A program made the position numbers and the translations under genes. A stretch of DNA of 63,282 nt, counting the filler, from Octopus bimaculoides (lineage: Eukaryota), in the NCBI RefSeq assembly GCF_001194135.2. It is 5 parts of 5 records of this genome, joined end to end, with 100 filler letters (N's around TTAATTAATTAA, not from the genome) between each part and the next. Parts side by side here need not be neighbours in the genome. Positions count along the whole stretch, not along the records: positions 1 to 18,366 come from NC_068981.1; positions 18,467 to 42,705 come from NC_069000.1; positions 42,806 to 52,973 come from NC_068984.1; positions 53,074 to 60,968 come from NC_068982.1; 1 more part is not named here. One strand, written 5' to 3'. Positions within the stretch are counted from its first letter, which is position 1, and every line of letters starts with the position of its first letter. The notes beneath the pieces are model-generated. The model saw nothing but the letters and a program-made list of their open reading frames with translations. It did not search any database and was not told the origin of the DNA. Below are positions 7,903-58,581 of this stretch, in pieces.

Positions 7903-8268
7903 AGTTTATTAGCCAACAGAATGTGACGGTCCAATCAAGAACGATGTTACTGTTTTTTAAGCCCCATGAAAACATCTTTTGCAGCTGGCTATCGACACAC
8001 AGTTTGTGTCCGTATAGTGTTTGCAAGGGAGGTCATCGCTCCCATCTCCAGCCTTACGTGATACTCACAGACCATGGTTTCTGAGTGTATACCTGTCCTC
8101 AGTGTGAGATAATCACTGGCTGGAGAAGGGAGCGATGACCTCCCTTGCAAACACTATACGGACACAGACTGTGTGTCGATAGCCAGCTGGAAAAGATGTT
8201 TTCCTGAGGCTTAAACAGCAGTAACATCGTCCTTTATAGGACCGCCACATTTTGTTGGCAAATAAACT
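7903..8268. repeat. Foldback: 151-bp inverted repeat arms (7903-8053 / 8118-8268)
   Basis: Hand alignment gives about 13 substitutions over 151 bp and no indels. Pairing continues imperfectly into the spacer. Confidence 0.95.
8058..8116 (-). ncRNA. Minimal type I hammerhead ribozyme motif at foldback apex (stem II degenerate)
   Basis: Minus strand: GUGAUUAU-CUCACA-CUGAGGA-CAGGUAUACACUCA-GAAA-C-CAUG-GUC^-UGUGAG-U-AUCAC. Stem I is a perfect 6 bp, the catalytic core is intact and stem III ACCAUGGU is palindromic. Confidence 0.65.
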
Positions 8269-8492
8269 GATAATTACTTACCCTATTAAATCAAATCAGG
8301 ATGAATAGACAGGTAATAAACAATTTATTGTGTACAGTTTTTGCTTTACCCTTAGACCGTTAAGTAAAACTCTAGCTCAAATAACAAGTTTATATTAATA
8401 TAGACTAATATCAACGATAAACTGTACAAATAATATTACTAATATAACACTTGACATGCTTTGACTTTGAAATTCAACAATAATTTGAATAA

Positions 8493-8740
8493 TGGCGTAG
8501 TGGTTAAGAACGCGGGCTACTAACCCCAAGATTCCGAGTTCGATTCCAGGCAGTGACCTGAATAATAATAATAATAATAATAATAATAATAACAACAACA
8601 TTGAAAAATACCTTAGGAATGAGAACCCAGGTTCGAAATTTCCCCAAGACACCTGATGAAGGCTGGAGGGTATATCAGCCGAAACGTTGTTTTAACAACA
8701 AACAAGATGAGAACAAATATCCGTCAATTGTAAATAATGT
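8493..8740 (+). mobile_element. SINE-C: tRNA-like head + (AAT)n + Penelope-like tail containing an HHR
   Basis: A-box TGGCGTAGTGG, B-box GAGTTCGATTCC, (AAT)n at 8561-8590, HHR motif at 8648-8693. Confidence 0.75.
8648..8693 (+). ncRNA. Minimal type I hammerhead ribozyme motif
   Basis: GACAC-CUGAUGA-A-GGCUG-GAGGGUAUAU-CAGCC-GAAA-C-GUU^-GUUUU. Stem II is a perfect 5 bp, stem III AACGUU is palindromic, stem I pairs 4 of 5. Confidence 0.75.
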
Positions 8741-9429
8741 AAAAAAATGTGAAACTAATTTACCTTTCATGTCACTTCGCAATAAAATGTGCAAGTGCGC
8801 GCGCGCGCGTGTATAAGATCGTGGGATTCTTTGAAAATTAAAGTATTCACTTTGGTATTGGCCTTGCTAAAATGATACTTCTATCTTTATTTATATACAC
8901 TGTGTATGAGAAAGGTTTGTCTTGCGAAAAAATATTATAATTAAATGTTTCATTTTTTTTTTCTGATACTATCTTTAAGAAACTCGATCAGCCCTGAAAA
9001 TCATTCATACATCAGCATGTCGCTTTTTGTCTTTCTGTAATATCTTTTTGCTGGTGAGCGCCATTTTTCTCTCTTGTGAAAGATTTCCTTTTATTACAAG
9101 ACCTATATCCCTATCACAACAGATACGATAGACAATTCAAATTTTAACCAACAATACTAAAACAACAATTACTAAAAACTGTTGTGCCTATCCTGAAAAC
9201 ATTAGTCTATTTATACATATACATTATGAATTAAGAACGGCAATCAAAAAGAATCACGAATGAAACAAATACGCCATCGACAAAGAAAAGAAAAAACGAG
9301 ATGAAGTAAAAATTAAGAGGAGAAAGAAGTAACTATTGTAAAACGGGTATGTTGTAATGTTATTGCGAAATTTAAATAAGGTTAATGAGTTATTTTCAGA
9401 ATTCTAATACCTATTTATGTGAACAATTG

Positions 9430-9710
9430 ACTGAAGGGAATATTGTTGCCAAAGGAGAATGTTATGGAAGACATGTAATTTTACCAAGAATTAAACTGAC
9501 ATCTGCAGACACCACACTGCCACTCACCCTTACAGGTTCCAGTTCGCGTGGTCTTCTCAGTTACAGCTAATAAGTTTCAATGTCAATCACTGAGCAAAAT
9601 AGGCCTGTTCTTCCTAACTGAACTGTTAGTGCATGGACAATTGTCAAGAACGACACAGGACGCTGCAGCTCTTGTGACAACGGCTACATAAATCAACAAC
9701 ATTGTGTAAC
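9430..9710 (+). mobile_element. Helitron helicase C-terminal remnant
   Basis: GECYGRHVILPRIKLTSADTTLP / QVPVRVVFSVTANKFQCQSLSKIGLF...HGQLSRT is a degenerate IPRI / QFPVRLAFAMTINKSQGQ / HGQLYVALSR. Confidence 0.8.
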
Positions 9711-10638
9711 TAAAGACTACCAATGCTAAAACTTGCCATTTAGTTTTCAAATTATCCACATACTCAATTCAGATAAATTTATATATACATATTTATAAAT
9801 ACTTGTATATTTGTATATTTTTTAAAATCATTATCCGTCGTCATCACCAATAACAACGATGACAGTTGCTGCTGTAACCTAAGTTATAACAATAACAGCA
9901 ATATAGATGGTAAGTATAGGAGCTTACAACCAAGGTTTAAAGAGCTAACTGAATTTCCTGATTATGTTCCATAGTATACGCATCCACTAAATTTAGTTGA
10001 AAATTCAGTGCTAAATGTTTTTAAAAAGCATTAATTTTCTTTCTATTTGTATATATTTTTTTCTACTTTTACCTACCAGTGGTATTTCTTTCCAGCTGCG
10101 TTACCTTATGGTAGAGTCATATGCTCATTATAAAAAGAATACCAGGTACCAGATGATCATCTCATGTAAATCAACAAAAGCTCTTTTGTATAGTTTTAAT
10201 GCGGTTGAAACTAAATACCAAGCTATTTGGTCCACAGATTCAAACATTGAACAAAGAGCCAAGGATCAGACTGCATGTGAAGATTATCAAAAACAAGTTC
10301 AACGCAAATAAAATCGTGTATGATTTCAGTGGTGCCAACACTTTTGATCTACTTCTTAAATCTCAAACTCCTCAGAAGTTTAAAAAAAAAACGGAATATT
10401 TATTGTCAATGTAAATAGCTCGCTTTCTGTTTAGTCAAAGAAAGTGTCAGGAAGCTTATCAACTGGAGAATCTGTGAATTTGGATTCTTTCCTTAATTTA
10501 AAGTTGTTTGTACTTGGAACCCGATTATGAAGGTGTCATCAAATCTTGTTAAATCACAGAGAAAGTCTGGAATAATATAAAGTCGATGAAAAATTTATGT
10601 ACTTTACTGAACTTCCTGAAATTTTATATTACTTATAT

Positions 10639-57324: not shown

Positions 57325-57425
57325 TACTTTCAATAATGACGTGGGGCTTAAAACGTTGTTCGATGAATTCCCCGAGCCAAGATCCGCTGATTTCTATAGT
57401 CGAGCTATTGGAACGTTAAAAAGAT
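57325..57425 (+). mobile_element. Mariner transposase C-terminal fragment
   Basis: FNNDVGLKTLFDEFPEPRSADFYSRAIGTL resembles F.....LK..L..FF.SK..DFY.RGI..L. Confidence 0.5.
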
Positions 57426-57449
57426 GTGTGTCTTTTATTGAATGGTTTG

Positions 57450-57712
57450 TTAAAATGCTTACTTGCTTTGCTTCCTGCTCTTGCCTGACCGGTCTGTGGT
57501 CATCCCAGGTTAGTTGTCTCAGAGACTCAACATGTGCAGAGCTGACCAAGTCCACCAGTACCCTGGATCACTGACAGTCCCGTATCAGCCCTTCTGCATC
57601 TTCCAAGATGACGTCGAGCCTCCGGACATCTTCCTTAAACAAGTCCAGTCATCTGGTGCGAGGCCGGCTGCGAGGCTTCTTCCAGCCCGCAGCTTCTGCG
57701 TCGAATGAGAGT
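57450..57712 (-). mobile_element. RTE-clade LINE extreme 3' end
   Basis: LSFDAEAAGWKKPRSRPRTR*LDLFKEDVRRLDVILEDAEGLIRDCQ*SRVLV matches RPRGRPRTRW.D...ED...L.DR..WR. Confidence 0.7.
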
Positions 57713-58215
57713 AAAGCCCTCATTCAATTTGTTAAATTTGTTGATGTTGATAAGGAGTAAAAAAAAAAAAGCACAAAAGATCAAATAACAACATCCCAAT
57801 ATATTTAATGATTTCGTAATATTGAAGACATTACGAAATAGTGATATTGGCTAACTACGCACATTTTAGAACTCTGGTTCTTAATCTCGAAATAATTACT
57901 CTGTTGGAAGCTTTATCAGCTCATGAACGGCGACGAATACCGAAACGGCGATGTAGCGGGCATTAGGGTTTCTTTTCTTAGAAAATAATGTATTTTAACC
58001 AAGTACACTTTTGTGAAAAGATCTTTAAGTTTAGGATATGCGCTGAACATTGTATTAGCAGTGAGTAAAAATATAAGCAATGATGTGCTAAAATACAGTA
58101 TAATTTCATTTTATAAAATCTTGACTTCTTTTGTATTTGTTAAAAAAATATAGCACATGCATTAGAAATAATAAATTTCTAAATCTCTCAGAGATACTTA
58201 AGAAGTAGTGAAGCG

Positions 58216-58581
58216 ATAAAGTAGTTGTATACTGCCAACTTAACGTGACAGTTCCAATAAGGGAAATACTACTGCTATTTAGCCCTAGGAAGCTGGACCG
58301 CTTCCTGTTGGCCTTGACACATTTCCTGTGTCCTTTTCTTTGCGAGGGGGAGACAAACTCCTCCACCCAGCCTAGCCTGCATTCAGGGACATGTTTCTGA
58401 GTCTTTGCTCGTCATCAGCCTGAAGTAGCACGACCAGCTGTTTGAAGAAGTCTGTCTACCTTTCGCAAAGATATACTATTTCAGTGAAATACATTATTTC
58501 TAATTTTTGTAACCAGTGAATGTTAGTATATTCCTTTATTGGGACTGTCACGTTAAGTTTGGCAGTATACAACTACTTTAT
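58216..58581. repeat. ~55-bp inverted repeats (58216-58270 / 58525-58581) enclosing an HHR
   Basis: ATAAAGTAGTTGTATACTGCCA-ACTTAACGTGACAGTTCCAATAAGGGAA-ATACT versus the reverse complement of the right arm: 2 substitutions and 2 single-base indels. Confidence 0.93.
58382..58424 (-). ncRNA. Minimal type I hammerhead ribozyme motif
   Basis: Minus strand: UUCAGG-CUGAUGA-C-GAG-CAAAGA-CUC-A-GAAA-C-AU-GUC^-CCUGAA. Stem I is a perfect 6 bp, the core is intact and stem III ACAUGU is palindromic. Confidence 0.8.

Follow-up and report, generated by a model that had tools for sequence, protein, structure and literature searches.

The window analysed here, a 63,282-nucleotide stretch of Octopus bimaculoides DNA made of five genomic parts joined by filler, contains hammerhead ribozyme motifs in inverted repeats and behind a putative Pol III promoter, which raises the question of whether these motifs belong to an assemblage of self-cleaving, rod-like or circular RNAs, as a preliminary description proposed, or to the ends of Penelope-like elements (PLEs). 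Six motifs were identified at five loci (E1–E5), all six lying where that description had placed them; because the motif pair of E3 represents one duplication, five loci are regarded as independent. Family-copy data cover E1 and E2 and come from sequencing runs other than those with only a small share of matching words, such as the insect metagenome X20; E3–E5 are described from the window copies. The features are as follows.

7846–8268, minus strand: E1, likely PLE 3′-end insertion plus inverted copy (foldback) with a hammerhead at the apex (arm alignment; family boundary 7846–7849)
7846–7902, minus strand: E1 3′ extension, on one arm only, PLE tail-like (family copies)
8064–8108, minus strand: E1 hammerhead, core 8102–8070, 6-bp stem I, stem III ACCAUGGU, predicted cut after GUC at 8070
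8492–8741, plus strand: E2, SINE-like, tRNA-like head, (AAT)n and PLE-type hammerhead 3′ module (sequence, family copies)
8493–8547, plus strand: E2 Pol III type 2 boxes (putative promoter, from sequence), A box 8493–8503, B box 8537–8547
8648–8693, plus strand: E2 hammerhead, core 8653–8688, stem III ACGU, predicted cut after GUU at 8688
23203–23401, no strand assigned: E3, head-to-head inverted pair, likely truncated PLE ends, adjoining (TTA)n (inverted-repeat alignment)
23250–23279, minus strand: E3 left hammerhead core, stem III AUAU, AUC site (motif scan)
23325–23354, plus strand: E3 right hammerhead core, stem III AUAU, AUC site (motif scan)
40477–40550, plus strand: second 3′ fragment of the E4 family, shorter, without hammerhead, ending in (TA)n (85% over 61 nt to 41910–41970)
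41905–42022, minus strand: E4, single likely PLE end with an A6U hammerhead, core 42018–41991, stem III ACGU (motif scan)
58178–58581, minus strand: E5, E1 homologue (E1/E5 alignment, inverted-repeat search)
58382–58424, minus strand: E5 hammerhead, core 58418–58388, 6-bp stem I, stem III ACAUGU, GUC site

A strict scan, whose descriptor called for at least 2 bp in each of stems I and II and for a palindrome in stem III, found five CUGANGA motifs against a mean of 0.037–0.047 (maximum 1) in dinucleotide-shuffled controls (300 shuffles at each of two block sizes). When any base was permitted at A6, six motifs were found against 0.11–0.12 expected (maximum 2), a density well above that of shuffled sequence. 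A relaxed scan recovered five of the six motifs, missing E1, which falls below its stem II cut-off, and yielded no convincing non-palindromic motif in the window; one extra match at 49856–49904 was not counted owing to a core mismatch. That the motifs are chance matches in AT-rich, repeat-rich sequence can be given almost no weight: the descriptor was composed after the preliminary description had been read, the predicted monomer folds of five of the six motifs are no more stable than those of shuffles, and Rfam returned no hammerhead (none among 146 matches at E≤1, nor at E≤10 among 7 matches for E1/E2 and 3 for E5), but more than two motifs occurred in none of the 600 shuffles and the family majorities repair the stems of E1 and E2. 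The motifs are thus overlooked by Rfam; the preliminary description had expected repeat annotation to miss such elements. The Rfam matches that were obtained are weak and driven by microsatellites.

On sequence grounds, the motifs belong to the minimal type I hammerheads typical of PLEs, in which stem III is palindromic. The cores CUGANGA and GAAA with an NUH site are strictly conserved in five of the six motifs, and E4 carries CUGUAGA (A6U), a close variant of the kind that the first description had allowed for. An unpaired base after A9 and a G10.1–C11.1 pair are seen directly in E2, in both motifs of E3, and in E4 and E5, and via the family majority in E1. A short palindromic stem III occurs in all six, although the strict descriptor demanded it; the AACGUU originally quoted for E2 and E4 is too long, taking in one core A and the cleavage U, and stem III proper is ACGU. 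The statement that the stems keep pairing stands at the family level for E1 and E2, but not for their window copies: stem II of E1 is damaged, and reads as 4 bp with G10.1–C11.1 once the majority letters are placed at 8094 and 8084, whereas stem I of E2 has only two pairs, and the majority G at 8691 (4.85M of 5.11M depth in set X2; 1817/2046 and 1995/2203 reads in X22) gives five. E2 and E3 conform to the published PLE consensus, CUGANGAH-G..C-GAAAN-palindrome-NUH (PMC4209133 supplement). In E1 an additional C follows A9 and an additional A precedes GAAA, and in E5 an additional C and A likewise flank stem II; the same C/A flanks are found in PLE-X1_cBra, and Hydra-clade PLEs can carry extra bases on both sides (PMC8557442 File S2).

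Three of the loci, E1, E3, and E5, had been described as inverted repeats, which is borne out for all three. The E1 arms (7903–8053 and 8118–8268) share 91% identity over 151 nt, and the extension of 54–57 nt on one side is found behind 8268 in other copies (41 contigs of set X2). Of 13 arm mismatches, 11 lie among the 40 of 255 rows listed, and at each of these the family majority re-forms the pair; the arms were therefore identical when made and then decayed independently. At four partner positions both arms depart jointly from the family majority. The E3 arms are 94% identical over 95 nt, forming a predicted hairpin of −142 kcal/mol in which the two ribozymes each pair with an antisense copy of themselves. 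E5 consists of an inverted end copy (58524–58581), an imperfect stalk (58425–58474 with 58334–58381), and a one-sided extension of 38 nt (58178–58215). Its inverted repeat (93%) is confined to the outer 58 nt; the middle was rejected as an inverted copy, since 945 of 2000 shuffles score equally well, and the inner stalk is diverged yet significantly complementary (0/2000 shuffles). E1 and E5 are identical in 164 of 256 aligned columns (score 96 vs a shuffle maximum of 39), with double changes at three pairs of stem I and, using the E1 majority, one pair of stem II. No inverted copy of E4 was seen in the window, and its 3′ end enters an N gap beside (TA)n; the E3 and E4 families both adjoin microsatellites. 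A 23-codon stretch upstream of E5 bears what we take to be a faint resemblance to a GIY-YIG C-terminus.

The E1 family also occurs unfolded and apparently head-to-tail. Joints from 8121/8122 to 7846/7849, stepping back 273–277 nt, were found in four X2 and two X14 contigs, and 6 of the 16 pieces listed end at 8116–8126 although the record continues for 20–3632 letters. An E1-like end closes a 3845-nt contig (X14 record 7).

Two readings of the foldbacks as units in their own right were weighed. In E1 and E5 the hammerhead lies at the apex, where the stalk runs on into stem I, a second foldback copy of the E1 family is present (X14 record 8, 44 differences), the diverged but still complementary inner stalk of E5 could also be explained by an inherited rod, and the head-to-tail units of the E1 family (~274 nt) resemble non-LTR retrozymes (PMC7229834), all of which would suit rod-like non-coding RNAs that are inherited as a family, bear a ribozyme at the apex, and replicate through RNA or circles, as the preliminary description proposed. 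This is nevertheless quite improbable, because the E1 arm mismatches are private to the window copy, both strands fold almost equally well, many E1-family copies have no arm, and the E3 ribozymes are masked by their own antisense; selection for a rod-shaped RNA was sought as a G-U bias on the ribozyme strand, and none was seen (3 GU vs 3 AC in E1, 11 vs 12 in E5). The transcript signs named in the same description did not appear either: in two RNA runs (X22, X23), the rows listed contain no pile-up of read starts or ends at the predicted NUH sites, RNA depth is <50 per direction, and no RNA read spans the three back-joints listed (~6% of two standard libraries). The same lack of RNA end pile-ups has been reported for the PAc ribozyme, which is active. 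Still less probable is an origin as MITE-like DNA transposons with terminal inverted repeats around a captured hammerhead: the ends of E1 and E5 are related and those of E5 are near-identical around a diverged interior, but the family sequence overruns the inverted repeat by 38–57 nt on one side only, no target site duplication is evident by eye in the flanks, and unfolded and apparently tandem forms exist.

An inverted 5′-truncated copy is documented for PLE insertions (PMC8557442, PMC4209133), a one-ended tail of 30–40 bp is a PLE hallmark, and opposite-strand hammerhead pairs 100–700 bp apart have been reported previously. Such a copy at the 5′ end is found in the window in E1, E3, and E5 and through family joints in E2. 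Because PLEs insert in this manner, PLE insertion rather than a rod-like RNA is the most likely source of the foldbacks, and E1 and E3–E5 may be no more than truncated ends left by autonomous PLEs.

The tRNA promoter reported at one locus corresponds to the A and B boxes of E2, and ARAGORN found no tRNA gene in the window. E2 is the only locus observed as a non-coding unit with its own promoter-like head; the earlier claim of Penelope-mobilised non-autonomous elements is thus upheld as to the likely Penelope link, but as to a non-coding unit for E2 only, and the idea of a separate ecosystem of circular or rod-like self-cleaving RNAs is not supported. High copy number was observed for E1 and E2, E2 being extremely abundant with very high depth in two organisms (A, B). 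Because read placement breaks at (AAT)n, the linkage of head and body is drawn from joints and the window copy.

E2 is likely a non-autonomous tRNA-headed element, which PLE enzymes would mobilise. Its features are those of tRNA-derived SINEs, i.e. a tRNA-like head, A and B boxes, and short, dispersed, high-copy units, and its head, body, and length fit a definition that names LINE partners (SINEBase; PMC3531059). It is therefore conceivable that E1 and E3–E5 are PLE ends whereas E2 is a LINE-mobilised tRNA SINE that captured a PLE end, with the hammerhead as a passenger. LINE-type RT fragments are present in the window, the window copy of E2 terminates in an A run, and no PLE partner was found: the 148 window ORFs (≥62 aa) gave four Pfam matches (DDE_3, RVT_1, PIF1, and HTH_Tnp_Tc3_2), none of them to a PLE RT or GIY-YIG domain. 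This alternative is nonetheless unlikely. The 5′ end of E2 is joined to inverted truncated copies in several contigs (opposite-strand joints of 8492 to 8626, 8642, and 8652 in 4 X2 and 11 X14 contigs); the window copy stops short of an extension of at least 30 nt behind 8741 that is common to family copies; the simple repeat is internal, the family 3′ end being the unique extension; stem I is intact in ~95% of DNA depth; and in 42 X2 contigs the body from 8630 onward lies under another upstream sequence.

Taken on sequence, the reading considered fairly probable is that E1–E5 carry real hammerheads of multicopy families and likely derive from the short 3′ ends of no fewer than four PLE families, E2 being likely a borrower of PLE enzymes with a tRNA-like head. 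Against it stand the predicted minimum-energy fold of E1, which sequesters the ribozyme core, the absence of RNA start or end pile-ups in the rows listed for X22 and X23, and the lack of a PLE RT or GIY-YIG match among the 148 window ORFs. The insertion pathway would begin with a PLE RT/GIY-YIG protein nicking AT-rich DNA. cDNA synthesis would start at one of two sites ~40–250 nt downstream of the hammerhead, so that some copies would include the extension and others not, and an early stop followed by head-to-head joining of a second truncated copy would create the foldback at insertion. In E1, E3, and further copies of E2, the inversion joints coincide with the hammerhead or fall immediately to its 5′ side (15 joints listed out of 228), suggesting that cDNA fold-back through the hammerhead stems may favour them. 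The hammerhead would be carried along inside the recognised 3′ module and is predicted to cleave only as a dimer, in tandem transcripts; E2 would be transcribed by Pol III from its A and B boxes. A more specific proposal is advanced tentatively, as a serious possibility somewhat short of probable: E2 would be a very-high-copy tRNA SINE that has a PLE rather than a LINE as its partner and keeps a conserved dimer-type hammerhead within the 3′ end that is recognised, and the hammerhead stems would be the cDNA fold-back points behind the inverted copies of PLE insertions, which have long lacked an explanation, filling the genome with ribozyme-capped dsRNA hairpins.

Among known systems, the pLTR hammerheads of EN+ PLEs (PMC4209133, PMC8557442) are similar in type I topology, the unpaired base after A9, G10.1–C11.1, the palindromic stem III, and location near the 3′ end, as well as in inverted truncated copies, a one-sided tail, apparent partial tandems, and microsatellite neighbours. 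The loci differ in that no PLE ORF was seen in the window, E4 is A6U, and E1 and E5 have a long imperfect stalk on stem I. Three window motifs had no match in the PMC8557442 supplement, whose octopus hammerhead, Hydra-1_Obim, differs from them in sequence. Nor did the supplement of PMC13282606 or the files searched of PMC4758252 contain motifs of the window, although matches across line breaks could escape all these searches. The E2 motif is absent from the metagenome, GTDB, and viral contigs searched, that of E4 from the viral contigs searched, and the E1/E5 pattern from the metagenomes searched. A looser E1/E5 pattern gave 24 viral loci, which were dropped because no E1/E5-type palindrome and stems were seen by eye.

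Schistosoma Sm-alpha and Sj-alpha, as described in a review (PMC6765202), are, like E2, non-coding high-copy repeats in which a type I hammerhead comes after a Pol III-type promoter. E2 departs from Sm-alpha in that account through its PLE-type stem III, a palindrome of 2 bp, through the (AAT)n inside the element, and through signs of inversion and extension like those of PLEs, and tandem arrays of E2 were not seen; the passage on Sm-alpha mentions no PLE partner, and cleavage is established for Sm-alpha whereas E2 is known here from its sequence. Non-LTR retrozymes, short non-coding repeats with a hammerhead for which a non-autonomous origin from PLEs has been proposed (PMC7229834; bioRxiv 10.64898/2026.07.22.740005), resemble the E1 family in its head-to-tail joints. 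The window copies differ in being monomers or inverted pairs, with no tandem hammerhead units in the window and no circular RNA in the rows listed; tandem hammerhead units of the E1 family are possible elsewhere. tRNA-derived SINEs are like E2 in their head with both boxes, length of <700 bp, and very high copy number, whereas E2 lacks a terminal simple-repeat tail, carries a ribozyme in its 3′ part, and likely has a PLE partner. Named octopus SINE families are OK, OR1, and OR2; the comparison of E2 made here is with the SINEBase definition.

Because hammerheads in PLE ends are already known, four of the five loci chiefly add examples to a published pattern and represent largely known PLE biology, and the new element is likely the PLE-mobilised SINE, E2. 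A partnership between a tRNA SINE and a PLE was not found in the literature searched. If confirmed, E2 would rank with the most abundant repeats of its host as a SINE that relies on a PLE, and it would offer a naturally short substrate with which to learn what PLE proteins recognise and what purpose the ribozyme serves, a question still open in PLEs (PMC8557442, PMC11167929). Inversion joints at hammerhead stems offer a testable mechanism for PLE inverted copies, and such foldbacks may be mistaken for MITEs and could be dsRNA and editing substrates. Among RNA reads of E2, 74–75% continue into unlike sequence, with both directions equal.

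The window is AT-rich animal DNA, rich in microsatellites and transposon fragments, and has the appearance of an octopus genome. A descriptor scan identified six hammerhead motifs: five that fit the strict pattern and have a palindromic stem III, and an A6U variant that retains its stems. They are carried by the following loci, which are likely 3′ ends of Penelope-like elements (PLEs):

7846-8268: E1, inverted-repeat locus (arms at 7903-8053 and 8118-8268)
8492-8741: E2, tRNA-headed SINE-like repeat
23203-23401: E3, inverted-repeat locus with two motifs
about 41905-42022: E4, locus with the A6U variant
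58178-58581: E5, inverted-repeat locus

Shuffled controls (two block sizes, 300 sequences each) contained on average 0.04-0.05 strict motifs (maximum, 1) vs the five observed, and 0.11-0.12 (maximum, 2) when A6N was allowed; the descriptor is post hoc, and the two E3 motifs represent a single duplication. An Rfam search of the window returned no hammerhead match. The hammerheads of the preliminary description are thus present at the coordinates given there and well above shuffled expectation, and its interpretation of them as parts of foldback and Pol III mini-elements, possibly circular or rod-like as RNAs, was borne out only in part.

The motifs of E2 and both motifs of E3 are identical in every letter to the PLE hammerhead consensus in the accessible part of the PMC4209133 supplement, and E4 agrees with it apart from A6U. 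In E1 and E5, one additional base flanks stem II on either side (C following A9, A preceding GAAA), as in the PLE-X1_cBra entry of PMC8557442 File S2, where bases flanking stem II on both sides are common in Hydra-clade PLEs. An alignment of E1 and E5 (164 of 256 columns identical; score 96 vs a shuffle maximum of 39) shows homology through the hammerhead, the 3′ region, and the extension, with three double changes in stem I, and the second stem II pair is G-C in the E1 majority and A-U in E5. Judging from its sequence, a stem III of ACGU or AUAU is unable to close as a hairpin, and activity of such hammerheads would therefore need a dimer, in line with the accessible text of PMC4209133. The window copies are decayed: one stem I pair is broken in E2, and the best predicted fold of E1 traps the core.

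Family data were obtained by comparing positions 7780-8800, which cover E1 and E2 (E3-E5 lie outside), with two raw RNA runs and the DNA contig sets of organisms A and B (X2 and X14, respectively) at 80% likeness; the rows listed comprise 40 of 255 variants, 15 of 228 joints, and 16 of about 59,000 pieces. E1 is multicopy, with a depth in X2 of thousands to >100,000 vs about 55 in unique flanks, depth not being equal to copy number. With the majority letters at 8094 (59-64%) and 8084 (70-73%), stem II is again 4 bp long and includes G10.1-C11.1. The arms of E1 contain 13 mismatches outside stem I, 11 of which are among the variants listed; the majority letter (72-97% of X2 depth) re-pairs all 11 (8 in the left arm and 3 in the right), and at four partner positions, also among the variants listed, both arms jointly differ from the majority. 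Therefore, the arms are copies of one template that later decayed independently. No G-U bias was found on the E1 ribozyme strand.

The E1 family overruns the inverted repeat by 54-57 nt on one side only (3′ with respect to the ribozyme strand), and E5 has a homologous one-sided extension of 38 nt. Of the 16 pieces listed, six end at the top of the natural stem I (8116-8126) in records that run on, once for 3632 letters. Joints of 8121/8122 to 7846/7849, among those listed, suggest head-to-tail E1 units. The E1 insertion with its left flank (7780-8034) is shared with organism B, where X14 record 1 differs from it at 13 of 255 positions, and is thus likely older than the A/B split.

Insertion from one template has to be weighed against inheritance of the foldback itself, which may apply to E5, the relative of E1. 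Another foldback copy of the E1 family is present in X14 (record 8); in E5, complementarity is clear in the inner stalk despite its divergence and lacking in the middle. These observations count against the insertion reading. In our reading, E5 is a longer truncated copy, with a natural, imperfect stalk, to which a short inverted end was joined.

E2 is composed of A and B boxes, (AAT)n, a body, and the hammerhead. In X2 and X14 alike, depth summed at the hammerhead reaches about 7.7 million vs 30-60 in the flanks, which suggests that the family is very large in organisms A and B. Its majority G8691 (95% of X2 depth; about 89% of RNA reads) brings stem I back to five pairs. Among the joints listed (15 of 228), 4 X2 contigs, 11 X14 contigs, and 4 RNA reads connect 8492 with the opposite strand at 8626, 8642, or 8652; in these other copies, an inverted truncated copy abuts the 5′ end, and head and body are linked. 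In many records, the sequence beyond 8741 goes on as a common extension of at least 30 nt (997 and 875 RNA reads; 131 and 114 contigs), which the window copy lacks, and most copies share a short 5′ extension. A different upstream sequence precedes the body (8630 onward) in 42 X2 contigs, a lead to the partner element of E2. The extension behind 8741 contains a complement of a purine-rich stretch near 8706-8714 (within 8704-8714); pairing of the two would enclose the 8741 end point in a stem-loop, resembling the initiation stem-loop of the Anolis element PAc. A second B-box-like stretch (8630-8640) lies directly upstream of the hammerhead, and the body may contain a second tRNA-like unit.

RNA reads laid on E2 derive mostly from other copies (≥99% identity in 39 of 8415 and 38 of 6852), run equally in both directions, and in three quarters of cases continue into unlike sequence, as expected of repeats within host transcripts. 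Neither RNA run (X22 or X23) showed a pile-up of starts or ends at E2. At 8661, an inverted piece of stem II is joined in 205 and 180 RNA reads, probably from a single expressed locus whose ribozyme carries an internal inversion. The A>G share of variant places in 7780-8800 is about 20% in the RNA runs (37/187 and 36/184) vs 11 and 14% in the two sets of DNA contigs; this excess possibly reflects A-to-I editing of the repeats, RNA and DNA coming from different individuals.

As far as the accessible parts of PMC8557442 and PMC4209133 describe them, PLE insertions show an inverted 5′-truncated copy beside the 5′ end, a one-ended tail of 30-40 bp, partial tandems, and microsatellite targets; the inverted copies and one-sided extensions of E1 and E5 match these hallmarks, and the head-to-tail joints of the E1 family may correspond to the tandems. 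Assignment to PLEs rests on structure because no PLE ORF was found in the window. Minimal hammerheads occurring in pairs, one on each strand and 100-700 bp apart, were described in 2014 (PMC4209133), and E3 has this arrangement; its transcript would pair each ribozyme with its own antisense (predicted -142 kcal/mol). In PAc, reverse transcription begins at two sites 3′ of the hammerhead, one at each boundary of the tail; insertion persists in ribozyme mutants, and no RNA-seq ends coincide with the cut site. PLE enzymes may insert these elements with internal initiation, early truncation, and head-to-head joining, hammerhead cleavage would depend on dimers, and E2 would be transcribed by Pol III and mobilized by a PLE. 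The observed joints lie at the top of stem I in E1, 17-28 nt upstream of the core in E3, about 105 nt upstream in E5, and 1-27 nt upstream of the core or inside stem II in the E2 family. The joints of E1, E3, and the E2 family would be accounted for if the cDNA folded back through ribozyme stems, this sample being small and biased.

PLE hammerheads, inverted copies, and PLE-derived retrozymes are already published. The accessible parts of the sources list an octopus PLE hammerhead (PMC8557442), give PLEs as 6.83% of the Octopus vulgaris assembly (PMC13282606), and describe Sm-alpha as a Pol III repeat carrying a hammerhead (PMC6765202), a precedent for E2. A search of literature outside most subscription papers and Repbase found no cephalopod hammerhead SINE, no SINE with PLE insertion signatures, and no hammerhead-guided fold-back; given this scope, E2 may be annotated under another name. 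The supplements of 10.64898/2026.07.22.740005 are unlikely to cover the host because the sample, as accessible, comprises 31 vertebrates, 3 insects, and 1 coral. That E2 is a PLE-partnered SINE is a serious possibility, with doubt slightly prevailing.

Other dispersed SINE-like families with many window copies (3129-3340, 6247-6380, 10626-10834, 11089-11235, 21175-21327, 23697-23910, 55590-55790, 60123-60384, 60487-60692, and others) all lack the hammerhead motif. About 150 nt from E5 lies a broken non-LTR retrotransposon RT fragment (58736-59819, minus strand; weak RVT_1 match, E 1.6e-5) that is not PLE-like. The window also contains a Tc1-like transposon remnant (38843-40382; HTH_Tnp_Tc3_2 and DDE_3), a PIF1-like helicase fragment, possibly of a Helitron (49838-50041), and a mariner-like fragment recognized by eye with no Pfam match (17559-17870). 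Four places (18411-18422, 42750-42761, 53018-53029, and 61013-61024) carry the same 12-nt spacer, flanked on each side by a run of 44 N, as an artefact of joining. Recurrent matches to a hammerhead-like core pattern were seen in viral contigs (loci L003, L005, L008, L009, L016, L018, and L024, and loci L010, L012, and L023); some may be phage hammerheads, unrelated to E1-E5.
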